Shown here: in pieces, positions 48,419 to 61,028 of the stretch
Numbering within the stretch: position 1 is the stretch's first letter
How the letters are laid out: the number at the start of each line of letters is the position of its first letter
NCBI RefSeq assembly: GCF_965204145.1
Contig: NZ_OZ241977.1
Location: 1,754,887-1,818,886, forward strand
Length of the DNA: 64,000 bases
Reading direction: 5' to 3'
From: Candidatus Poriferisocius sp.
Lineage (GTDB): Bacteria > Actinomycetota > Acidimicrobiia > Acidimicrobiales > Bin134
The notes under the pieces: model-generated
What the model saw: only the letters and a program-made list of their open reading frames with translations
Database searches by the model: none
Told to the model about the DNA's origin: nothing
Made by a program: the position numbers and the translations under genes

Positions 48419-50170
48419 TCAAATCACAAGGCCGCTGCGGCGGTCCACCGTTCGATGGTCCTTTTCGATGATCGCGGTCACGTAGCTGAGGTCGAGCCGA
48501 CTGAGGTTCCAGTGCGAACGGAAGCCGTGGCGGAGCAGTTCGAGGTAGAGCAGACTGGGGCTGGATTCGGCCTGCCCAGAGAGATGCCGTCGAACGATCT
48601 CCTCCACGGCGGTCTCAGGAGGATCGACCAGTTCGCCAGCCACACCTTCAGCAGCGCGCATGGTGAGCATCAGGTCGAGTGTGGCTGTGTTCTCGAATCC
48701 GGATGCAAGCCCCTTCACTGAGCGTTGGCCCTTGTCCAGCATGGCGATGAGTTCCGGGACTACCTCCAGGCCAGCGGCTGCAATGGACCGCTGGAGTAGC
48801 TGCCACACCTTTCCAGAGCTGTTGCCGAAAAGCAGGGTGATGAACCCTCCCGGCTTCACAATACGGAGGCACTCTCGCAGGGCATCAGTCATGATCTGCT
48901 CGTATCGCTCAGCAGTCCGGACGGCGCCAGTGTCTACTCGGTCGATTACTGCCTCCTTGTCCGGGTCGGTGAACTCCGATAACCAGGCCTCTTGAAAGAG
49001 GTTCATGTCCGAGTAGAAGATATTGGCCCCGAAGGGCGGGTCGGTAAATACGTAGTCGACCGAATGATCTTCGATTGGCAGGTCATCGGCGCTCGCGCGC
49101 TGGTAGCTGATGCCATGATCATCTTCAGGGACCCAATTGAGACGAGTCCGACGTTCTGCGGCGATCCACCGGTCGGAGCGGATTGCAGCCTCGACCTTCC
49201 TGCTGAAGAGGTCGAAGACGTTCCACTCGTAGAACACCGGGGCAACGTAGTAATTGGCGTTTGCTGCATTGAGCGGGCGCTGACGGGACCACTGGTACCG
49301 CTTGCTCGCCCTGGTCAATATGGCCGTGAAGGCAAACCGCAGCTTGTCACGCAGGTCTGCTTCATCAACCTCGTCGATCCCGGCGCGTAGTGCAGCAAGA
49401 GCACAGAGATTGCGTTGAGAATAGAAGGAGGCCACAGATGTCAGACCGTGTCGACCAAGTGCAGAGGCAACATACATCTGACGAGACTCTTCGATGTCCA
49501 CATCAGGCCACATCAGACCGGACGAGTCGGCTTCCTGAATCGCTGGTCGATGGGCCTGCTCTATCTGGGTCCGAGAGCAATCACAGGCAATCGAATCCAC
49601 TACTGGCCTCTCATGGAGCCGCTGGCACCTACTCGAAACTGCCGCACCGCAGCCAGGGCAGGCCATCTGGGTCTTCTTCCAGTCGGCTGCTTCCAAGCAG
49701 TAGTAGAAGTTGAAACCTTGCCCGCAGGCTGGGCACTCCATGACCGCCGACCAAACCGTCTTGGCGATCTCTGCGTTGTCCCCGCAGAGTCCGCACTTCA
49801 CGGCATACACCTCCCCAACACGCTTTCTCGCTTGATCGATGACCTCATCGGCCCTCTTGCGCAAGTGTTCTTCCGACACCTGGTTCACGTAGTTGGTCCC
49901 AATATGTCGGCCGAGCGCCGAAACGTCGTACAACCGTGCTCTCCGACCAGTCATGAGCGCGGCCACTCCAGTCATCCCCGAGCCTGCGAATGGGTCAAGT
50001 ACGATTTCACCCTCTCGGGTGAAGGCCTCAATGAACGGCACGATGCCCGCCACCGGTACTTTGGTCAGGTACGCGTGGGCCATGTACACCGGGTCACTGC
50101 GCTTGACTGCAACCATCGACGGCAGGGCGGGAAGCCCGGTTTTGCTCACAACCCCGACCTTACCCACCAT
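48419..50170 (-). CDS. Amino (N6A/N4C) DNA methyltransferase with Zn ribbon
   Basis: YLTKVP, motif I DPFAGSG, several CxxC, motif IV DPPF; start uncertain (50170 vs 50215). Confidence 0.85.
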   Translation of the reverse strand: MVGKVGVVSKTGLPALPSMVAVKRSDPVYMAHAYLTKVPVAGIVPFIEAFTREGEIVLDPFAGSGMTGVAALMTGRRARLYDVSALGRHIGTNYVNQVSEEHLRKRADEVIDQARKRVGEVYAVKCGLCGDNAEIAKTVWSAVMECPACGQGFNFYYCLEAADWKKTQMACPGCGAAVSSRCQRLHERPVVDSIACDCSRTQIEQAHRPAIQEADSSGLMWPDVDIEESRQMYVASALGRHGLTSVASFYSQRNLCALAALRAGIDEVDEADLRDKLRFAFTAILTRASKRYQWSRQRPLNAANANYYVAPVFYEWNVFDLFSRKVEAAIRSDRWIAAERRTRLNWVPEDDHGISYQRASADDLPIEDHSVDYVFTDPPFGANIFYSDMNLFQEAWLSEFTDPDKEAVIDRVDTGAVRTAERYEQIMTDALRECLRIVKPGGFITLLFGNSSGKVWQLLQRSIAAAGLEVVPELIAMLDKGQRSVKGLASGFENTATLDLMLTMRAAEGVAGELVDPPETAVEEIVRRHLSGQAESSPSLLYLELLRHGFRSHWNLSRLDLSYVTAIIEKDHRTVDRRSGLVI

Positions 50171-50233
50171 GGGTGACAGTAACGGGTAATGCGCCGGTAC
50201 ACTCCCGGCAGTCATGAGTGCAGGCAGTACCTA

Positions 50234-51703
50234 GTGGGCTTCAAAGAGGACGCAGACTTCGCACGCTTCGTATCGGTGGGCGCAATTGGAACTGCCTCGG
50301 TGGCCGACCACCTTCAAAATCAGCTCAATCATCAGCCGATTGAGCTCGAGCGCTATGCCATGGCCAACAAGGTTTGGCAGACGAAGGTCAAGCGGCTGCG
50401 GCTGCCTGATCTGTTGTGTGTGCGGTGTGGCTTGAGAGTGGAGTCGAGGGCAAAGTCGAAGCTCAAAATCATGCTGTCGCATTCGGATACGCCCGGCCGA
50501 GAGTGGGACGCGGGTGGAATGCGCCAGGATGACCTGTTCGCGTTCCTCCACACCGACATCAACCAGGATCCGCCGCATTGCGGCGCTCCCATCTTCTTTT
50601 CGACTGAGGCACTCCGAGCCAGCATCGCGCAAGCCAAGAGATCGGCACCGAAAGCAGCATCGGAAGGGTCCGAAATCACCCTCACATGGCCCTGTTGGGT
50701 TCCGACCAAACGAGGGCAGTATCTCGGTGTCGACGATGAAGACCGGATCGTGTTCTCAGGCGTGGACGAGAAAGTTCAGCGATACTGGCAATGGCGAGAT
50801 TGGGGTGGTCCGAGATTTATCTACTCGGAACCGGGAGATTTCATAAGGGGCGGCGAACAAGTTCTCGCTGGAGTCGCCGAACAGACTTCCAACCCAATGT
50901 GCTCGGGAGACTCATGGGACTTGGCCGCGGCCCTACACTCCAGCGAGGCCGTCGAGCGGTATGCAGCGGTCAAAGCAGCAGGATCAATGGAGCTTCGCGA
51001 ACTGTTCAGCACCCTGTCCAGTATGAGCAGCGACTCCAGCGAAGATTGGAGAGTCCGACTTGAGGCTCAGATCGCTCTAGCTCGGCTCGAACCCGACCCT
51101 TGGGTCAGGAAAATCACGGACCAGATTTCAGACACCGAGACTGAAGCCGATCAAAAGATGGAGGCAGTCTTGGCAATGTCCGAACTCCCGTCTGAAGCAG
51201 CGGCCATTGCTCTTGATCGGATTGCGGCGAAAACAGACCTTCCAAATGAACTGAGGGCGGCAGCAGCTTGGGGACTGGGACAAGGGGCAGCGCGGAACCC
51301 AGAATTGCTGATCGACCACTTCGTCGATCCGGACCCCATCATCGCTCTGCACGCAATTTCTTCCGTAGATGAACTCTCAAGTGATCTGCAGCGGAAGCTC
51401 GTCGGATGGATGGCCGAAGAAGGGGTGAACCGGGCTTCTGCTGCCGCCCAACTCCTTCAACGCCACGGCTGTGTCGACTCGCTTCTAGAAGCCACGCAAT
51501 TTGGCGACAACGCTCGCCTATGGGCACTTCGAGCACTGGGAGAATTGCCCCCGGCATTGGTCAGGTGTCTAGCCGGAAGCCGACTAACTCCCGATATCGA
51601 ACAGGTACTGCGCCCGATGTGGTTGGGACAGGACGATTGGCTCAGGCAGGACGGCAAAGAGGGTCTCGACGCCCTCGATGTTCAAAAGATCCGGTTCCGC
51701 TAA
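50234..51703 (+). CDS. Putative PD-(D/E)xK-like nuclease fused to HEAT-like repeats
   Basis: PDLLCVRCGLRVESRAK at the N-terminus; repeated R..AA.AL helices at the C-terminus; divergent from the MTase; GTG start inferred. Confidence 0.6.
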   Translation: MGFKEDADFARFVSVGAIGTASVADHLQNQLNHQPIELERYAMANKVWQTKVKRLRLPDLLCVRCGLRVESRAKSKLKIMLSHSDTPGREWDAGGMRQDDLFAFLHTDINQDPPHCGAPIFFSTEALRASIAQAKRSAPKAASEGSEITLTWPCWVPTKRGQYLGVDDEDRIVFSGVDEKVQRYWQWRDWGGPRFIYSEPGDFIRGGEQVLAGVAEQTSNPMCSGDSWDLAAALHSSEAVERYAAVKAAGSMELRELFSTLSSMSSDSSEDWRVRLEAQIALARLEPDPWVRKITDQISDTETEADQKMEAVLAMSELPSEAAAIALDRIAAKTDLPNELRAAAAWGLGQGAARNPELLIDHFVDPDPIIALHAISSVDELSSDLQRKLVGWMAEEGVNRASAAAQLLQRHGCVDSLLEATQFGDNARLWALRALGELPPALVRCLAGSRLTPDIEQVLRPMWLGQDDWLRQDGKEGLDALDVQKIRFR

Positions 51704-51722
51704 GCGTCGACTGGACTGATCG

Positions 51723-52283
51723 CTACGCGAATCGGGCGGAGCGCATGGCCAGGAGATCGCCGTCGGATGCCTCTAGCACCTCGCGGGCCTCGTCGGGGCC
51801 CTTCATGCGCAGCGGGCAGGACACGACTACGTCCATCACCTGGTTGAGCCGGCCGAAGGCAATCCAGCAGCCGATGGCTAGGGTCATCTCCACCACCAGA
51901 TCTTCGCCGAAGTGCCCGACCATGCGGTCCATGAACTTCTGGTCGATGGACAGGTGGTCGACCGCGAATTTCTCCGCGTACTCCAGAGCATCGCGCTCGG
52001 CTTCGCTGAAGCCGTCGTATTCGTTGCGATTTCCGACGTTGAGGTAGTCGTCCTCGCTCAGTTCATATTGCGCCAACGACGCAATGCGGGTGTCCAGTCA
52101 AACCACGCATTCGTTGATCTGGGCGATCCTCATCCGCAGCAGCTCCCGCAACCGCACCGGGAGCTTGCTCTCGTTGTACACCGCGCCGCTGAACGCCGAT
52201 GCCGGTCCGGACAGCGCCGGGGTCATCATCCACAGTCGGTGCAGCTCCTCTTCGGGGCCATCGGGAATCCGAATTCGTGCCAT
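51723..52283 (-). CDS. AhpD/carboxymuconolactone decarboxylase family protein, probable selenoprotein (CxxU)
   Basis: Two ORF-track pieces are in one frame, joined through TGA 52098-52100 in RELLRMRIAQINECVV*LDTR; C-terminal half has ERDALEYAE and VEMT CMD-like motifs. Confidence 0.8.
52067..52085 (-). promoter_or_regulatory. Putative bacterial SECIS hairpin
   Basis: AUUGCGUC-GUU-GGCGCAAU, starting 12 nt after the UGA; loop begins with GU. Confidence 0.6.
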
Positions 52284-52352
52284 GCCTCCTCCTTGGCTGG
52301 GGTCGTCCCCACAGTACCGCCCCGTGTTCCTGTTGCCCCTACAGTCGATGGA

Positions 52353-54047
52353 ATGGGCGCCAATGGCCGACGATTGACAGCCATCGCACTGGCCGTTGCG
52401 CTGGTCTTGTCAGCCTGTTCTTCATCTGAGAAGTCGGCCGAACCGCCAGCGCCGACGGCTGCTCCCGCATCACCGGCCGAACAGCCGCAGTCCCAAGCAA
52501 CCGCTGAGGCCGAACCGACATCTATGCCCGAGCCAACGTCTGAGTTTAGGCCGACAGCCAGCGAATCGCCGGGCGGCAGCCCGCCTGAAGTCATAGAGCA
52601 TGCCGCCGACTGGCCCCTGCCCAATCGGGACAACGCCGCCACCCGGGCTGTGTTCGACAGCCCCATCGACTCGTCCAACGTCCATCGCCTGGAAGTGGCC
52701 TGGACTGCCGAGGTTCCCGGCGGCAGCACCTGGGGCAACCTGGCCACGACCCCGCTCATCTTGGGCAACCGGGTGTACGTGGCCGGCCTCGACGGCGGGG
52801 TTCAGGCCATCGACCGAAAGACCGGCGAGGTTCTCTGGACGACGGGACGACGGGGTGGCATGTACGGCCCCTCGGGAGTGGTGGTGGGCTGGGGCAAGGT
52901 GTTCGCCACCAAGATCGGCTGGCGCCAGCGGGGCCAGCTCATCGCGGCCTATGACGCCGAGACCGGCGAGGAGATCTGGGCCACCGACATCACCGGTGGC
53001 GACCTCAGCGAGATCAACGTGCAGCCGTTCGCCTACAACGGATTGGTGTACGCGGCCACCAGTGGCTTCCCCGCCGGGGCGCGGGGCACCATCCACGCCT
53101 TGGACCAGGCCACCGGTGAGATCGTGTGGTCGTTCGCCACCGTGGAGGACGAAGACCTGTGGGGAAACCCCAGCATCAACAGCGGAGGCGGGGCATGGTA
53201 TCCCCCCGCGCTGGACACCGAAACTGGCACGCTTTACTTCGGGGTGGGCAACCCCTACCCCTTCCCCGGCGCCCCCGGCTGGCCGGCGGGGTCGAGCCGT
53301 CCGGGCGACAACCGGTGGACCAGCGGCACGGTGGCCCTCGACGCGGCCACCGGCGAGCTGCGCTGGGGGTTCCAGGCCTTCCCCCACGACATCTTCGACC
53401 GCGACCACGTGCTGGTGACGCTGGCCCACGCCCAAGACCACGGCCTGGACCGCGACGTGCTGGTGACCGCGGGCAAAGGCGGGGTGGCGTTCGGCCACGA
53501 TCCGGCCACCGGCGAGGTGCTGTGGCGCACTTCGGTGGGCCAGCACCAGAACGACCACCTGGAGAGCTTCGACAAGCCGGTCGAGGTGATGCCCGGCGCC
53601 CAGGGCGGCATGGTGACTCCGGTGGCAGCGGCCGACGGGGTGTTCTACGCCGTGGTGGTCAACGCCCCCAGCTTCTACGAGTCCGACCAGGTGGCCAGCG
53701 GCGGCGAGGGCACCCAGCTTTTCACCCGCCCTAGCAACGCGGTGGCCATCGACATCGCAACGGGCGACATCGTCTGGGACGTGGAGATCGTCTCCCAGTT
53801 CCCCGACGTTCCCGCCGCCGACGCGTTCGGCGGCATGACGGTGGTGAACGACCTCCTGTTCACGTCCACGTTCTTCGGAGAGCTATTGGCCCTCGATCGG
53901 GCCACTGGCGAGATCGTGTGGCACCACCAGGCAAAGGGGGCCACCAACGGCTGGCCCGCAGTGGCCGACGACATGATCATCTACCCCATCGGCCTTGTGG
54001 ACGAGCCTGGAATCCCCCACCTGCTGGCCCTGCGCCTGAAGCCCTAG
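52353..54047 (+). CDS. PQQ-like beta-propeller lipoprotein
   Basis: Lipobox LSAC; repeated ALD..TGE..W blades; PHD.FD.D. Confidence 0.85.
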   Translation: MGANGRRLTAIALAVALVLSACSSSEKSAEPPAPTAAPASPAEQPQSQATAEAEPTSMPEPTSEFRPTASESPGGSPPEVIEHAADWPLPNRDNAATRAVFDSPIDSSNVHRLEVAWTAEVPGGSTWGNLATTPLILGNRVYVAGLDGGVQAIDRKTGEVLWTTGRRGGMYGPSGVVVGWGKVFATKIGWRQRGQLIAAYDAETGEEIWATDITGGDLSEINVQPFAYNGLVYAATSGFPAGARGTIHALDQATGEIVWSFATVEDEDLWGNPSINSGGGAWYPPALDTETGTLYFGVGNPYPFPGAPGWPAGSSRPGDNRWTSGTVALDAATGELRWGFQAFPHDIFDRDHVLVTLAHAQDHGLDRDVLVTAGKGGVAFGHDPATGEVLWRTSVGQHQNDHLESFDKPVEVMPGAQGGMVTPVAAADGVFYAVVVNAPSFYESDQVASGGEGTQLFTRPSNAVAIDIATGDIVWDVEIVSQFPDVPAADAFGGMTVVNDLLFTSTFFGELLALDRATGEIVWHHQAKGATNGWPAVADDMIIYPIGLVDEPGIPHLLALRLKP

Positions 54048-54083: not shown

Positions 54084-54506
54084 TCAGCCACCCGCCCAAG
54101 GGTCGATGAGGTCGACTGCCATGCCTTCGAAGTGCCGGATGTTGCGAGTTGCCACGGCCATGTCGCGAGAACGGGCGATCGCCGCGATCTGGCCGTCGGA
54201 CTGGGAAACGGGACGTCCATCTGCCCGGCAGGCAGCAGCGATGCCGGCGTATGCGCGTGCCGCATCACTGTCAAACGGCAGCACACGACCAGCGAAGACC
54301 TCACGCAGCATCGCCTCAACCTCAGTTTCCAGGGCGTCTCGACGCCGGCCCGCAGGCATTATGGCAATGCCATAGAGCAACTCCGCCTCGCTCACTGCGG
54401 AGAGGAACATGGTGGTTGCTGCGCGCTCTGCCACCCATGCTTCAACTGCTGAATCCGGCAACGGGCGCATCAATTCAGAGACAACGTTGGTGTCGAGAAC
54501 AATCAC
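54084..54506 (-). CDS. vapC: PIN-domain toxin (VapC/FitB-like)
   Basis: IVLDTNVVSE, DGQIAAIA, ATRN..HF. Confidence 0.9.
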   Translation of the reverse strand: MIVLDTNVVSELMRPLPDSAVEAWVAERAATTMFLSAVSEAELLYGIAIMPAGRRRDALETEVEAMLREVFAGRVLPFDSDAARAYAGIAAACRADGRPVSQSDGQIAAIARSRDMAVATRNIRHFEGMAVDLIDPWAGG

Positions 54507-54516
54507 CGCTCCTGCC

Positions 54517-54759
54517 TCATTCGAAACGAGGCGGTTCTGGCATGGCCTCTCTTGGGGGCAATTCCAACTCCACCCCCCCGAGATGGGCAAAGCGTTCGCG
54601 AATTGCAGCAGCAAGATCGGTGGGGCCCACGTCCTGCTCAACGGCGTCGCGCAAGATCAAACGGGCCTCCTCTTCCATTGAACGCCCGTGGCTGGCCGCC
54701 AGTACACGGAGCCGCTTCTTCACTTCATCGTCAAGATTGCGAATGGTGATGCTCGCCAT
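54517..54759 (-). CDS. RHH antitoxin (FitA-like)
   Basis: MASITIRNLDD..K.RLR..AA.HGRSMEEEAR.IL. Confidence 0.9.
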   Translation of the reverse strand: MASITIRNLDDEVKKRLRVLAASHGRSMEEEARLILRDAVEQDVGPTDLAAAIRERFAHLGGVELELPPREAMPEPPRFE

Positions 54760-54849: not shown

Positions 54850-55002
54850 ATGGCTGAACTCGCAGTAATCATCCACGGCGAGCGGGCCGGAACGGTCTCA
54901 GACGGCAGGGACGGGCGGGCGCTTTTCTCCTACAGCGGCGAGTACCTTTCAGGTGGCTGTCTTATGGGGTGGGGGCCTGGGGGGTGGTTTGGGGGCCTTT
55001 GA
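54850..55002 (+). pseudogene. Truncated HipA N-terminal domain fragment
   Basis: Hand translation MAELAVIIHGERAGTVSDGRDGRALFSYSGEYL resembles the HipA N-terminal subdomain; runs into the end of the large gene. Confidence 0.55.
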
Positions 55003-58000
55003 TTCTTATCCATTGGCTGGAGTGGGGGCTGTCTTCGCCGGTTCTGGGGCCGGTGAATGAGCGGACGAACACGCCGGTGGGGACGCCGTTTTGGAGGCCG
55101 GTGATGGTATAGGCGGCGGTGCCGCCCTCGACGACGATGCCGTCGTTGTGGTGGCCTCTGGGCCCGGCTGGGTTGGCCCAGACTCCGGCGACCTGGCTCC
55201 AGCGCAGGGCGTGGCGGATGTCGTCGTCGGCCTCGCCGGCTCGCGGCGACACGATCCAGGTGATGGTGAGGGTGCCGTCGCCGGGCACGGCCTGGACGTT
55301 GAACGGCTCGAGCCTGCCGTCGCCGGGATGCTCGGGCTGCGGGTCCTCGGGCTGCGGGTCCTCGGGCTGCGGGTCCTCGGGCTGCGGGTCCTCGGGCTGC
55401 GGGTCCTCGGGCTGCGGGTCCTCGGGCTGCGGGTCCTCGGGCTGCGGGTCCTCGGGCTGCGGGTCCTCGGGCTGTTGGGGGAGGGTGGTGGTGTTGTGGG
55501 TGCGGGGGCCTTTGCCGGTTTCGTTTTGGGCTCGTACCCATATGTTGCAGGTTGTGCCGGGTTTGAGGTTGCGGAAGGTGGTGGTGGTTTTGGGTGCGTC
55601 GACGGTGCGGTGTTTGCCGTTTCTGCCGCATCTGATGTGCGCGATGTAGTGGTCGGGGGCGCCGCCGACAGCGGGGGGCTGCCAGGAGACGGTCACGTTG
55701 CGCGGTCTCGCGGCCAGCGACAGGCCGGTCACCGCCCCGGGCGCCTCGACGGTCGTGTCGGCGACCGCGACCGACACCGAGTCGACCGCGATGGCGTCGT
55801 ATCGGGTGTCGCTGCTTGTGGCCTGGTGGGTGACGGTGGCGGTTTCGTCGTGGGTGTCGGGGTCGGCCACCCCGGTGACGGTGAAGGTCTGGGGGGTGTC
55901 CCAGTCGGCGGGGGTGAAGGTCGCCGACGCGGGCGACACAGTTGCGGCGGCGGGGTCGCTGCTCTCAGGGGTGATGGTGACGTCGTGGGCGGGTCTCGCG
56001 TCCAAAACGGCGGTGTAGGTGGCGGTTGTGTTCTCGTCGGTGTTGAGCGTCAGCGGTGTGACGGTGACCGCGGGCGGCTCCGGGACGGGGTCGGTGGTGG
56101 TGGTCAGCGTGTAGGTGGTGGTGGTGTAGGCGTCGGCGGCGGTGACGGTGACCTCGAACGCGACGGGCTCATGGAAGGTGTAGCCGGTGCTCAGCGACCA
56201 CCAGCCGATGCCGGTGTTCCAGCCGGGGGCGGTGAAGGTCGCCTCGGGGTGCTGCGTGCGGATCTTGGCCAGCACGGAGATGTAGGGGGCCTGCTGTGCG
56301 GTGTGGTGGATGGTGTAGTCGGCGGTGTCGGGGTCGAACGCGGGAGACAGCGCCCACCCGTCGGGCAGAGACAGCGATGCGAGGCGGGCGTTGTCGGACT
56401 TGCCCGGTATGGGCTTTCTGGGCTTGTCGCGCTCGCGCTTTTCCGCCGCGGTCTTCTCCGCGGCGAGGCTGGTCGGTCTGGCCTCGGCCGCGCCGGGGGG
56501 CGCGCCGGTGTCGTGGTTCAAGATCGTGATGACCATCCCGCGGCCCTCGAACCCCTCGGCTGTGGGTTTGACGATGATGGTCTCGCCGCTGTCCTCGTGC
56601 GCGTCGTCGACGATGCGCAAAAACACCCGGTGGTAGCCGGTCTCGCCCTCGGCGAAGAACACATAGGGCGCCGTGGTGACCTTGGCCTGCCGGTCGGGCG
56701 GCACGAACGGGTCATAGGAGTTCAGCCACTCGTAGTCCACCCCCGCGGTCGCGGTGCTCGCCGGGTCCACCTCGAGCTCGACCCGCAGCCCGCCGGGCGG
56801 GGCGGGCTCGCTGATCCAGATCGGCAGCGAGTAGAACGCCCCGGCGGGCTCGTCGGGGTCCTTGCCCCTGACGTCGACGATGCTCCCCGCAGGCGGGGTC
56901 TCGCGCACGTGCATCGGGAACGCGCCGAGGCGGTCGGGCCGGTTCGTGGTGGACTCCATCCACAGCAGCGGCGTGTACACCAAAGCCAGGTCCGCCGTGT
57001 CGCCCGCAGACCAGCCCAGACCGGCGCCGGACCACGCGAACAACATGGGGGCGCGGCCCAAGACGGCCTCGTAGTTGTAGGACTCGCCGGTGAGCAGCGG
57101 AAACACCTCGCCGTCGACGACCAGCGACAGGAACATCCACTCGCCCAGCACCGACTCCAACGCGAAGCTCAACGTGCCCGCCCCCGAGTCCTGATGGGCC
57201 AGAGTGCTCGAGCCCAAGTGGACGTAGTGGCCCGAGCCGAGGTTGACATAGGCCACGCCGACGGGCGAGCCCCGGAAGGCCACCCTGCCCGCCGACATCG
57301 CCGACGAGCAGACCGGCCCGGTGCGGGAATCGCCGGGCGCGCCGCAGCCCACCGCGGACGCCGAGCGGCCGTGGCCCAGCCCGAACGACACCTCGCCCAC
57401 CGTCAGGTCCGACTCCCACACCACCCGCTGATTTGCCGGAAGCACCCGCACCGCCACCGGCGACGACCAGAAACTCGGCCCCTCCGCATCAGAGGCCCGC
57501 ACCCGCACCACATAGCGGCCGTAGGTGTCCAGCCCCGCGATCCGCTCCGTCGTGCCGGTGCCCGAATGACCGGTGTCCACCCAGCCCGTAGCAGGATCGC
57601 CCGCCGTCGTCGCCGCCCGGTCCGGGGCGCTTTGGCGCCTGTACTCCACGTCATAGCCGACCACCGCGAAATCAGGGTCGCTCGGAGCGGTCCACGACAC
57701 GTCGATCGTCCCCTCGGAGGTCTCCAAGGTCAGCCCCGTCGGGACGGTGCCCAGCTTGATCTGGAGCTGCACCACCTGCCCCTCCGCCCACGCCGGGCCG
57801 CCGCTCCACTGCTTGGAGTGATCGGCGTCGGTGACGTCGGGATTGGCGAACGGGAACTGCGCATCGCCCACCTGGAGCACATAGGCCCTCAGCCCGGCGG
57901 GAAACACCGGCCCGGCATCGCTAATCACCAAAGACAGGGCGCCTGCGTTGACCGAAAGCGAACTGATGCCGTAGGTCGCGCCGTCGAGGACGAAGTCGTT

Positions 58001-60871
58001 GTCCTCGATCACCGGCGAGCCGACGTTCTGGCACGACAGCGGCGACGTCGCGCCGCCGGGGAGATGGCAGCCGAAAAACCCCGCGCCTAGATCGGCCACC
58101 ACGAGCTTCGCGGCCCAGATCGTCCCCTCGGGCAGCGGGATGGCGCGCACCGCATCAGACCAGCCGCCCGCGCCCTGCGTGTTCGCCGCCAGCACCCGCA
58201 CCTCGTACTGCGTCAAATTGGCGAGACCGGCGATCACCAGGGACAGCCCCGACCCCGCCGGGGCCACGCGCCCCGCCGACACCCACCCGTCAGCCGGGTC
58301 GCCGGTCGGGTTGTCCAGCCGGTCCGGCGCGGCGCGCTCCTTGTACGACACCTGATAGAAGACGATCGCCGAACCCCCAACATCGCCCGGCGCCCGCCAC
58401 GACGCCGTCAACTCCCCGTCCCCGGCCGCAACCGCCAAACCGGCCGGAACGCCCGGCGTCACCAAAGACTTCAGAATGCGCAGCTCCACCGACTGGCCCG
58501 ACGCCCACTCGCTCCACACCAAACCGCTCACCAGCCACTGCACATCGGTCGAATCCGCCAGGCCCTCGACGAACGAGAACTCAGCATCGCCCACCACCAG
58601 CGTGTAATCCGACCTGAGACGACTCTCGGAGATGTCGGTGAAGAACTCCAGGCGGAGGTGATTCGGGCAGGGCGACATGCTGTCGTCACCGCAATTGGAC
58701 TCGTACTCCAGCCTCAGACTCGTAATCGAAAAATCGTTCCCCCCGGTCTCGAAGGTGCTGTCGGTCAGCGCCGTGGAGCACGCCGACGCGCCCGAACCCC
58801 CACAGCCCCGCGTGCCGGTGCCTAGGATCACGGCTGAGACCGTCTTGGAAGTCAACGTCGCCGACCACACCTCCCGCTGACGCGCCGGCGCCCCAGACAC
58901 CACCGCGCTCCACGCGCCCGCGTCGATCGAGTTCACCGCCCGCACCCGCACGTCATAACCCCGGTAGTTCACCAGGCTCCCGCCCGAGGGCACCAGCTTC
59001 AAGCTGACCGCGCTGCCCGCGGTCAAGATCTCGTCTGCATGCGCCCACATGGCTATGGTGCCGCCGCCGCTGATCGTGGCGTCGGCCAGAGCGAACTCGT
59101 CGTCGCCCACATGCAGGACAGAGCCCTTGAGCGTGTCGCTGATGACGTTGTCGAAGGTGACCCACACATTCCTGGAGGAGCCGTACTGGGCGATGCGGGT
59201 GACCGAGAACGCCGTCCCGCCCAAGGTGAAGTCGTCGTCGGACAGCGTCGCCGCGGCAGTGCACTTGTTCGCCGCGGCCGACTCGGCGTTCTCACAGCCA
59301 ACGGCCGCGAGATTCCGGATGTTCTTGGGCGTCAGCGTCGCCTCCCACACCGGCTCCGGCTCGCCCAGCACAGCGGCGCGGATCCCCGTGCCCGAGTGCG
59401 GGACGGGCACCCAGCCGTCGCCGGGGCCTCTGCCGGCTGGGCTGCCGTCGCTGGTGACGAGCGACAGCCGGACCTGCTGGCCGTCGGTCCACGTCACGCC
59501 GGAGCTCGTCCAGCTGGTGGAGCTGAAGTCCCGGAAGGGCGACAGCGAGAAACGGGAGCCGCCGACGACCAGCGAATAGTCCGCGAGGTCACCGATATCG
59601 GTGCTGAAGCCCATCACCAACTCGCCGGTCGACGAACTGAGATCGAGCTCAATGACTGTGTACTCGACGCCGCCCAGGCTGAAGCCGGCATCGTCGAGGG
59701 CGACAGAACAGGCATCGAGGACGCTGAAGTCAGTGCAGCCAAAAAATTGCGCGCTGCGGTCCACGGTCAGCGTCGCTTCCCACAACACGTCAGACCCGCG
59801 GTCCGGCGCCGAGGACTCCTTGTACTGCACCTCATAACCGGTGACCTCCGAATCGCCCGGGTCGTCGGGCGGCTGCCAGTAGGCGTTCAGCCGCCGGTCG
59901 CCCGCCGCCGCGCCCACGCCCTTGGGCTTGTCGGGCGCCTGGGACGGCTCCAGGCGCATCTGCACCGCGGTGCCCGCGGTCCAACTCAAGCTGGAGCTCC
60001 ACTGGACGCTAGTGCCGGATTCGCCGGCCAGGGGGAACTTGTCGCCGCCCACGTGCAGCGTGTAGCCCGTGAGCGCGTCGGGGATACTGGCGCTGAACTC
60101 GACCTCCAGAAGCTTGGTGGAGTTCAGCACCCCGATGTAGGTGATCGACAGCGTCGTGCTGCCCAGCGTGAAGTTGTTGTCGTCGAGCGTCGCCGTGGTG
60201 CTGCACTTGTTGGCCGCAGTCGTATCGTCGGTGTCACAGCCCAACGCCAAGTTGTTCACGATGCTCTTGGGCGTCAGCGTGGCCTCCCACAGGATCGAGT
60301 CGTCCAGGATGAATAAATCCTGGCTCGACGCCGCGCTGTCCACGGTGTAGGGCTCGCCCGCGACCGCGGTCATCAGGAACCGGACGGTCTCGTTGCGGCC
60401 CTCGAAGCCGCCGTCGTCGTTGACGTAGTCCGCCACCGCGTGCACCGTGAAGGAGGCCTGGGCCGCTCCCGCCGGCAGCACCAGATGGCCGCTGGCGTCC
60501 AGCCCCGACACCGTGTAGTCCTCAGGAGAGGTGGCGTGGTCGCTGCTGTGGGTGATCAGCACACGGCTGTCAGAGGCCAGCGCCGGGCTGATATTGACTG
60601 TGAACGTTATGTCGGTGCCCTCAGAGGTGATGACGGTGGACTCGTGGAACCTCAGCGTCGAGGCCGACTGAGCCGCCGCCGGACGCTCAGCAGGCGCCAG
60701 CAGCCCCGCGAACACCCCCAGAACCATCAACAGCGCCGCCAGCGTCCGGGGTGCCCCCGCGAACCGCCTCACCCGCCGGACCACCATCACGCCCCGACGA
60801 CGCATATCGGGGGGGGGGGGGGTCACTGCAACAGAACCCGACACAGCACGCCGCAAACGAAGAAACGACAT
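54962..60871 (-). CDS. Large secreted/surface protein with Calx-beta-like, FN3, cadherin-like and six Cys-pair repeat domains
   Basis: Signal-like segment ending AAAQS; FN3 motifs (W..P..G.V.GY; Y.VRV.A.N..G.G.WS); ~1970 aa from ATG 60871 (start uncertain). Confidence 0.85.
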   Translation of the reverse strand: MSFLRLRRAVSGSVAVTPPPPDMRRRGVMVVRRVRRFAGAPRTLAALLMVLGVFAGLLAPAERPAAAQSASTLRFHESTVITSEGTDITFTVNISPALASDSRVLITHSSDHATSPEDYTVSGLDASGHLVLPAGAAQASFTVHAVADYVNDDGGFEGRNETVRFLMTAVAGEPYTVDSAASSQDLFILDDSILWEATLTPKSIVNNLALGCDTDDTTAANKCSTTATLDDNNFTLGSTTLSITYIGVLNSTKLLEVEFSASIPDALTGYTLHVGGDKFPLAGESGTSVQWSSSLSWTAGTAVQMRLEPSQAPDKPKGVGAAAGDRRLNAYWQPPDDPGDSEVTGYEVQYKESSAPDRGSDVLWEATLTVDRSAQFFGCTDFSVLDACSVALDDAGFSLGGVEYTVIELDLSSSTGELVMGFSTDIGDLADYSLVVGGSRFSLSPFRDFSSTSWTSSGVTWTDGQQVRLSLVTSDGSPAGRGPGDGWVPVPHSGTGIRAAVLGEPEPVWEATLTPKNIRNLAAVGCENAESAAANKCTAAATLSDDDFTLGGTAFSVTRIAQYGSSRNVWVTFDNVISDTLKGSVLHVGDDEFALADATISGGGTIAMWAHADEILTAGSAVSLKLVPSGGSLVNYRGYDVRVRAVNSIDAGAWSAVVSGAPARQREVWSATLTSKTVSAVILGTGTRGCGGSGASACSTALTDSTFETGGNDFSITSLRLEYESNCGDDSMSPCPNHLRLEFFTDISESRLRSDYTLVVGDAEFSFVEGLADSTDVQWLVSGLVWSEWASGQSVELRILKSLVTPGVPAGLAVAAGDGELTASWRAPGDVGGSAIVFYQVSYKERAAPDRLDNPTGDPADGWVSAGRVAPAGSGLSLVIAGLANLTQYEVRVLAANTQGAGGWSDAVRAIPLPEGTIWAAKLVVADLGAGFFGCHLPGGATSPLSCQNVGSPVIEDNDFVLDGATYGISSLSVNAGALSLVISDAGPVFPAGLRAYVLQVGDAQFPFANPDVTDADHSKQWSGGPAWAEGQVVQLQIKLGTVPTGLTLETSEGTIDVSWTAPSDPDFAVVGYDVEYRRQSAPDRAATTAGDPATGWVDTGHSGTGTTERIAGLDTYGRYVVRVRASDAEGPSFWSSPVAVRVLPANQRVVWESDLTVGEVSFGLGHGRSASAVGCGAPGDSRTGPVCSSAMSAGRVAFRGSPVGVAYVNLGSGHYVHLGSSTLAHQDSGAGTLSFALESVLGEWMFLSLVVDGEVFPLLTGESYNYEAVLGRAPMLFAWSGAGLGWSAGDTADLALVYTPLLWMESTTNRPDRLGAFPMHVRETPPAGSIVDVRGKDPDEPAGAFYSLPIWISEPAPPGGLRVELEVDPASTATAGVDYEWLNSYDPFVPPDRQAKVTTAPYVFFAEGETGYHRVFLRIVDDAHEDSGETIIVKPTAEGFEGRGMVITILNHDTGAPPGAAEARPTSLAAEKTAAEKRERDKPRKPIPGKSDNARLASLSLPDGWALSPAFDPDTADYTIHHTAQQAPYISVLAKIRTQHPEATFTAPGWNTGIGWWSLSTGYTFHEPVAFEVTVTAADAYTTTTYTLTTTTDPVPEPPAVTVTPLTLNTDENTTATYTAVLDARPAHDVTITPESSDPAAATVSPASATFTPADWDTPQTFTVTGVADPDTHDETATVTHQATSSDTRYDAIAVDSVSVAVADTTVEAPGAVTGLSLAARPRNVTVSWQPPAVGGAPDHYIAHIRCGRNGKHRTVDAPKTTTTFRNLKPGTTCNIWVRAQNETGKGPRTHNTTTLPQQPEDPQPEDPQPEDPQPEDPQPEDPQPEDPQPEDPQPEDPQPEDPQPEHPGDGRLEPFNVQAVPGDGTLTITWIVSPRAGEADDDIRHALRWSQVAGVWANPAGPRGHHNDGIVVEGGTAAYTITGLQNGVPTGVFVRSFTGPRTGEDSPHSSQWIRIKGPQTTPQAPTP
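55331..55474. repeat. 15-bp tandem repeat CTCGGGCTGCGGGTC x9.6 (encodes PEDPQ x9)
   Basis: Perfect head-to-tail units inside the large gene. Confidence 0.95.
60809..60822. repeat. G14 homopolymer (C14 on the coding strand)
   Basis: Counted directly; encodes TPPPP in the N-terminal leader. Confidence 0.9.
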
Positions 60872-61028
60872 CACTTCAAACTCCCGATCCGTTATCAAGG
60901 CCGCGAACGCAACCCCAAACTCCAACAGGCCCCAAAGCCCGCCCAACACCAATTCTATCCCACAAAACCCCAACACCACGCCAACCGACGGACACGCACG
61001 CCACTGCCCTCAGACGCGTTCGCGGGTG

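Follow-up and report, generated by a model that had tools for sequence, protein, structure and literature searches.

Results

Organization of the locus

The DNA analysed in this work (hereafter the window) is a 64,000-nucleotide stretch of the single 3.57-Mb contig that makes up the genome of a Candidatus Poriferisocius species. Between positions 52283 and 51723 its minus strand holds a single frame of 186 codons, with one in-frame TGA at 52100-52098. The list of open reading frames (ORFs) presents this gene as two, one of 61 aa (52283-52098, minus) and one of 117 aa (52076-51723, minus), both in the same frame; reading through the TGA gives a product of 186 aa, ...RIAQINECVVULDTR..., which ends at a TAG stop (51722-51720) and whose redox motif is C59-V-V-U62. 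The first-pass annotation had placed the gene at 51723-52283, and on re-reading of the sequence all of its coordinates and features proved correct. It had also claimed that the two ORFs share one frame and that the UGA falls on the second Cys of a CxxC motif, which agrees with the 186-aa frame, with C59-V-V-U62 and with the Cys that homologues carry in this column. The features of the gene and its surroundings are collected in Table 1.

Table 1. Features of the UGA-containing gene, its neighbours and other TGA-bearing genes of the same genome (G000)
Feature	Position	Strand	Basis or remark
Predicted complete selenoprotein gene, CMD/AhpD fold	51720..52283	-	ATG 52283, codon 186 at 51723, TAG 51722-51720
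Shine-Dalgarno-like AAGGAGGAGG, abutting ATG 52283	52285..52294	-	Read from the sequence; putative function
TGC codon, Cys59, first residue of the C-x-x-U motif	52107..52109	-	Cys column in 24/24 full-length rows of alignment A1 (query included)
In-frame TGA, codon 62, probably read as selenocysteine	52098..52100	-	Orthologues, homologues, RNA-library contigs
SECIS-like hairpin, 8-bp stem, GUU loop, 12 nt past the UGA	52067..52085	-	Pairing and compensatory changes
C-terminal extension, ~26 residues (161-186), genus orthologues only	51723..51800	-	Alignment A1, pLDDT, dN/dS
Lipoprotein-like PQQ-type beta-propeller gene, divergent neighbour	52353..54047	+	Present in 18/30 related loci examined
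HEAT-repeat gene (504 aa), convergent neighbour	50189..51703	+	Present in 9/30 related loci
PIN-domain gene	54084..54641	-	
2005-aa ORF	54962..60979	-	
selD (locus L060)	G000:C1:3454000-3455900	-	One in-frame TGA
Second CMD gene (locus L059)	G000:C1:3212800-3213900	+	CxxU motif
Six further TGA-bearing matches (AhpC-TSA, four; molybdopterin oxidoreductase, one; Rdx/SelW-like, one)	G000:C1:1107279-1107662, 1619520-1619897, 2251195-2251527, 1170955-1171296, 1265723-1266994, 1098013-1098225		Candidate selenoprotein genes

The selenoprotein gene is flanked by a divergent beta-propeller gene and a convergent HEAT-repeat gene, the latter adjoining a DNA methylase gene. The methylase (598 aa, N6_N4_Mtase, minus) and the HEAT-repeat protein occupy 48419-51703 of the window, and of 30 related loci only 9 have the HEAT-repeat gene next to the selenoprotein gene, which suggests a variable island, possibly of restriction-modification type. 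Beyond the PQQ-type gene lie a PIN-domain gene and a long ORF. Related contigs come from Candidatus Poriferisocius, Acidimicrobiales or Acidimicrobiia MAGs, and the runs that hold this stretch are labelled sponge metagenomes; by these labels the host genus is sponge-dwelling.

Protein family and fold

The read-through protein matches the Pfam CMD family (PF02627) over residues 30-104 with 38.9 bits against a cut-off of 23. Its AlphaFold model (pLDDT 82.7, pTM 0.76) is all-helical, with Sec62 placed within a short helix formed by residues 60-64. The best Foldseek match was 7xw1, an AhpD of P. aeruginosa (TM 0.87 by target length, rmsd 2.2 A), and the 15 best-ranked matches were all AhpD, CMD or peroxidase-related chains. 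A profile made from alignment A1, which comprises the query and 27 of the 56 proteins matched in the database, returned PA0269/AhpD (E = 1e-18), then Atu0492, the debrominase Bmp8 (3e-7) and other 'peroxidase-related' CMD proteins. The closest solved relatives are thus PA0269 (2o4d, 2ijc, 7xw1) and Atu0492 (2gmy), with profile E values of 1e-18 to 2e-15, TM scores of 0.79-0.87 by target length and a shared Glu-x11-Cys-x-x-Cys register, in which Glu47, 12 residues before Cys59, aligns with the Glu of PA0269. These proteins are only 22-24% identical to ours, however, and differ in carrying Cys rather than Sec, and in having His where our protein has Arg four residues past the second Cys.

The motif that defines AhpD includes a His four residues past the second Cys (CxxCxxxH). 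Arg66 stands where PA0269 has that His, and Arg is found throughout the subfamily, the Cys homologues included. The AhpD core model TIGR00778 scored below its cut-off (19.7 versus 27.8 bits), and no ahpC-type gene was seen among the immediate neighbours, the nine AhpC-TSA matches of the genome lying elsewhere. Because of the Arg in place of His, the sub-threshold TIGR00778 score and the lack of an AhpC-type neighbour, a role as an AhpD-type peroxidase partner is not established. The AhpD of M. tuberculosis (1knc) shares the CMD-superfamily fold and a CxxC redox centre, but its fold was matched only marginally (rank 49, Foldseek E = 1.7), and our gene has no adjoining ahpC; in that enzyme the second Cys is the nucleophile, the position held by Sec in our protein. 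Judged by sequence and model, we are dealing with a CMD-superfamily CxxU selenoprotein that is AhpD-like in fold and motif and does not qualify as a canonical AhpD.

Of the NCBIfam selenoprotein models, NF053654, the model of a YciW-related (seleno)protein, reached 48.7 against a cut-off of 310, while NF041047 and NF041238 were absent among matches with E <= 0.01. As no AhpD-superfamily selenoprotein model of that collection was reached, the protein looks like a member of a subfamily without its own model.

The C-terminal tail (residues 161-186) is peculiar to the genus. The Cys homologues of 156-172 aa stop short of it in alignment A1, its block-mean pLDDT is 46-61, and its dN/dS values (0.05-0.72) are above those of the rest of the gene. 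The last residues of the tail (...RMKGPDEAREVLEAS..LLAMRSARFA) are nevertheless conserved despite the low model confidence.

Conservation of the UGA codon

Sixty-one related genomes, the window's genome (G000) among them, were searched in six frames with stops read through. Full-length orthologues, 75-99% identical by tblastn, were recovered from G000 and from 29 further genus genomes, each with exactly one internal TGA, and in all 30 that were extracted this TGA is codon 62; neither TGC nor TGT occurs at that codon among the genus orthologues. The first-pass annotation had named a TGA unique to this strain, in a genome devoid of Sec machinery, as the outcome that would speak against recoding; what we find is a TGA in 30 of 30 orthologues and sel genes in the genome. 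As to the remaining 7 of the 36 other genus genomes, the gene of G016 is split across two contig ends, both pieces having the TGA, and from G006 residues 1-32 alone were recovered, while the six-frame search gave no match to the selenoprotein gene in G005, G012, G013, G014 and G031. The last five are small genomes (1.8-2.9 Mb), all with selA, of which G012 and G014 are only 68% and 84% complete; the gene seems to be dispensable in a part of the genus with reduced genomes.

As gauged by dN/dS in eight pairwise comparisons (0.03-0.44 for codons 1-61, 0.05-0.34 for codons 63-160), both halves of the gene are under purifying selection in the same frame. The UGA is also bridged by RNA-library contigs from three sponge metatranscriptome libraries of two studies (covering 52043-52294, 51887-52245 and 51941-52256), which are 95-99% alike and for which no difference is listed at 52098-52100. 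They give a weak hint of expression, as such libraries may contain DNA and say nothing of translation. Cover by RNA-library contigs is absent over 51400-51707 and most of 52588-52700, which carries no weight either way.

Cysteine and selenocysteine forms

The database search returned 56 proteins. Twelve of these are C-terminal fragments of genus orthologues, 117-120 aa long, which begin just past the UGA and go by the name of 'hypothetical protein' or 'alkylhydroperoxidase family enzyme'; no full-length genus orthologue is present among the 56. The expectation that annotation pipelines would split the gene has thus come true in the public record. The full-length matches are 156-233 aa long and 34-56% identical. 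All 23 full-length database proteins in alignment A1 carry C-x-x-C, and the second Cys falls in the TGA column. Cys is found in the same column in four genomic homologues (G044, G053, G047 and G052; 33-35% identity), and TGA in homologues from three other families of the order (G040, G037 and G058) and in a paralogue in G003 (36-44% identity). Alternation of Cys and TGA at this column, which had been put forward as a check on the gene, is therefore real, with Cys in 23 database and 4 genomic sequences and TGA in 4 distant homologues.

In a quick tree of 75 sequences the Sec forms fall at three places between Cys forms, and the well-supported branches require the Sec/Cys label to have changed at least twice. 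The tree was obtained by a quick search with SH-aLRT support, was rooted at the midpoint and has several long branches, and no direction of change was inferred from it; 13 of the 56 database matches were left out, namely the 12 C-terminal fragments and the aberrant P0051. The pattern fits the dynamic exchange of Sec and Cys already described in the selenoprotein literature.

A conserved hairpin downstream of the UGA

Twelve nucleotides (CUGGACACCCGC) separate the UGA from the sequence AUUGCGUC-GUU-GGCGCAAU (window 52085-52067), which can form a hairpin of eight pairs, one of them U-G, with a 3-nt loop that begins 20 nt past the UGA. This is the element described in the first-pass annotation, which spoke of an 8-bp hairpin with a loop starting in GU and spacings of 12 and 20 nt; it reads as stated, and relatives have it in place with covariation.

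Folded as a single sequence, the 64 nt past the UGA give z = 0.06, and 86 of 200 shuffles fold as well. Since such a fold is uninformative in DNA of 66% G+C, comparative pair counts were used instead. There are 34 TGA-bearing sequences, of which 18 are distinct when compared over 54 nt (the TGA, 6 nt ahead of it and 45 nt past it). A stem of 7-8 bp can form at the same offset in every one of these 18, the homologues at 36-44% identity included. When the structure is imposed on this alignment (A2), standard pairs fill 97.9% of the cells, as against 23-56% with the 3' partners slid by 1-3 columns, and none of 500 shuffles matches the observed paired-cell percentage or the covariation score. Compensatory replacements are seen at three of the eight pairs (A-U to G-C, U-A to C-G and G-C to A-U), with one further change of U-G to U-A, in a set of related sequences that embodies few independent events. 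On one arm, some of these changes alter the encoded residue (Ala to Met or Val, Tyr to His), which is to be expected where RNA structure constrains a coding sequence. In every case G is found at loop position 1 or 2, the loop sequences being GUU, GGC or CGGGA; the loop of our gene, at 3 nt, is small.

When 51650-52350 was scanned against Rfam at E <= 10, three matches at chance level came up and no SECIS family. In four Cys-form homologues folded over the corresponding region, no hairpin formed at +12, a weak control in that the same regions fold strongly elsewhere (-18 to -26 kcal/mol).

Selenocysteine machinery

The genome contains selA (398 bits), selB (276 bits, adjoining selA) and selD (350 bits), all above their curated cut-offs, together with a tRNA-Sec of 66.9 bits, likewise above its curated cut-off, which ARAGORN also calls tRNA-SeC with anticodon tca (UCA). 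All four genes that the first-pass annotation had proposed to look for, selA, selB, selC and selD, are thus present. Its remark that Sec use is uncommon in Actinobacteria, on the other hand, does not hold for this lineage: selA is above the cut-off in 50 of the 61 genomes searched, namely in G000, in 35 of the 36 other genomes of the genus and in 14 of the 24 from other families. Actinobacteria are in fact counted among the phyla rich in selenoprotein families in passages of PMC1794560. Among genomes outside the genus, selA accompanies the TGA form in 3 of 3 (G037, G040 and G058); of the Cys-form genomes, G047 and G052 have it, and none was found in G044 and G053. In G021 (93% complete, 80 contigs) the TGA orthologue is present (locus L028) and no selA was found in the assembly, probably through an assembly gap.

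Discussion

Probable recoding of the UGA as selenocysteine

Taken together, the data make it very probable that the UGA at codon 62 is recoded as selenocysteine in one 186-residue selenoprotein of the CMD/AhpD fold. During translation, the hairpin 12 nt past the UGA would then serve as a bacterial SECIS element; SelB with Sec-tRNA(Sec) would bind to it and insert selenocysteine at the UGA in place of termination, the Sec-tRNA being made by SelA with selenophosphate supplied by SelD. Selenium incorporation and the binding of SelB are what we infer from the codon, the hairpin and the genes, and any substrate and physiological reductant are likewise putative. With Sec in the second position of the CxxC motif, the enzyme most likely cycles between the selenol/thiol and the selenenylsulfide, and, as a small AhpD-like enzyme, it would reduce peroxides or disulfides.

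A highly improbable alternative is that the UGA is decoded, though not as Sec, either by near-cognate read-through with Trp or Cys or by a lineage-specific reassignment. A frame that is open under a chosen code is no evidence for that code. Against this alternative, the genome has a complete Sec machinery, the column is Cys (the usual counterpart of Sec) in all Cys-form homologues and never Trp or Gly, and the TGA is accompanied by a position-specific hairpin that the four folded Cys forms lack at that offset. Besides, TGA is no general sense codon, since it ends 28 of the 53 long ORFs in the window, in a rough count that includes spurious ORFs.

Two separate products, a 61-aa peptide and a 117-aa protein started at TTG 52076, would yield either a split CMD domain or a C-terminal part that is functional alone, and this we regard as a highly improbable reading. 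Both ORFs do exist, and because bacteria as a rule insert Sec with low efficiency, some chains will probably end at 61 aa whichever reading holds. However, the protein sequence of codons 63-69 (LDTRIAS), which run from the UGA to the TTG, is conserved and can be aligned with Cys homologues made as a single chain, no Shine-Dalgarno sequence could be read ahead of TTG 52076, and the active-site motif would be severed past its first Cys. Finally, the notion of a dead gene with the TGA as a true stop, whether through a recent nonsense mutation or an assembly error, has in its favour only that gene callers treat the gene so and that databases hold nothing longer than 117-120-aa 'hypothetical protein' fragments, and it is effectively refuted by the conservation of the TGA, which recurs in 30 of 30 independently assembled full-length orthologues, in contigs from three RNA libraries and in homologues of other families, and by the coding constraint on both sides of it.

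Relation to known selenoproteins

Selenoproteins of the AhpD-like and CMD kinds with a CxxU motif have been in print since 2005, as the first-pass annotation had noted in saying that AhpD-like CxxU selenoproteins are known from marine metagenomes. As far as the excerpts of these sources go, Zhang, Fomenko and Gladyshev (2005) described AhpD-like CxxU proteins (27 sequences) and 'CMD domain-containing' CxxU proteins (4 sequences) from the Sargasso Sea (PMC1088965), Zhang and Gladyshev (2008) reported 'AhpD-like 1' (COG2128, 299 sequences) and 'AhpD-like 2' (pfam02627, 70 sequences) in the GOS data (PMC2398784), and a 2026 review tabulates several AhpD/CMD CxxU selenoprotein families (PMC13188914). 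Our protein resembles the marine families in belonging to PF02627, in having Sec at the second position, widespread Cys homologues and a bacterial SECIS-like element, and in its marine setting; it has the pfam02627 domain and the CxxU motif by which the AhpD-like 2 and CMD families are defined in the parts of those papers referred to here, a likeness of published descriptions rather than of sequences. It differs in its host, a sponge-associated genus of Acidimicrobiales, and in the 26-residue C-terminal tail of the genus form. Our literature search found no work on selenoproteins in sponge Acidimicrobiia, though the supplements of the selenoproteome papers may list this subfamily; for Poriferisocius itself, it gave work on coral microbiomes only.

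We therefore regard the gene as a new and unannotated representative of a kind of selenoprotein that was already known, probably from a subfamily without its own model. Nothing is changed by it in what is known of recoding or of the family. The practical gain is one of annotation, in that a conserved redox enzyme of a widespread genus of sponge symbionts is represented in databases by a stump of 117-120 aa. The Sec forms, with their hairpin at the same offset, and the Cys forms interleaved with them also make a clean natural series for the comparison of Sec with Cys.

A possible link to dehalogenation

A more specific function can be imagined from the relationship to Bmp8 (6ohi, 6ohj), a CMD-family reductive dehalogenase of marine bacteria (Foldseek E = 8e-4, TM 0.65) whose C-M-Y-C aligns with the CxxU motif. 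The Sec-bearing, Arg-containing CMD subfamily might catalyse a selenium-dependent reductive dehalogenation, or a similar reduction of small molecules, acting, like Bmp8, on the organobromine compounds abundant in sponges. The aligned CxxC of this relative, the missing AhpD His, the lack of an ahpC neighbour and the sponge-dwelling habit of the genus are all compatible with such an activity, which we nevertheless consider very unlikely. Bmp8 is more distant than PA0269, has no Sec and, according to an excerpt of PMC7918430, is part of a cluster for bromopyrrole biosynthesis; around the selenoprotein gene there is no such cluster. Were a dehalogenase to be confirmed, it would be a bacterial counterpart, with a different fold, of the animal deiodinases. 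Those enzymes are Sec-dependent.

Other candidate selenoproteins in the genome

Several other genes of the window's genome carry in-frame TGA codons. The selD gene has one (...YSHGAG-U-AGKLGP...), at the site where SelD usually has Sec or Cys, with a hairpin that starts 7 nt downstream. A second CMD gene encodes another CxxU motif (...RVNDC-N-I-U-KNLR...) and has a 7-bp hairpin 10 nt past its TGA, so that two of the six CMD matches in this genome carry TGA. In-frame TGA codons are also present in four of nine AhpC-TSA matches, in one of five matches to molybdopterin oxidoreductases and in the single Rdx/SelW-like match, which has two. Counting selD and the two CMD genes, the genome contains at least nine candidate selenoprotein genes. 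In view of the in-frame TGAs in selD, the second CMD gene and the AhpC-TSA, molybdopterin and Rdx matches, the lineage probably has a sizeable, under-annotated selenoproteome, and selenium supply may matter to the handling of oxidative stress by sponge symbionts. Weak matches with one TGA are found elsewhere in most genomes of the genus, and may include orthologues of the second CMD gene.
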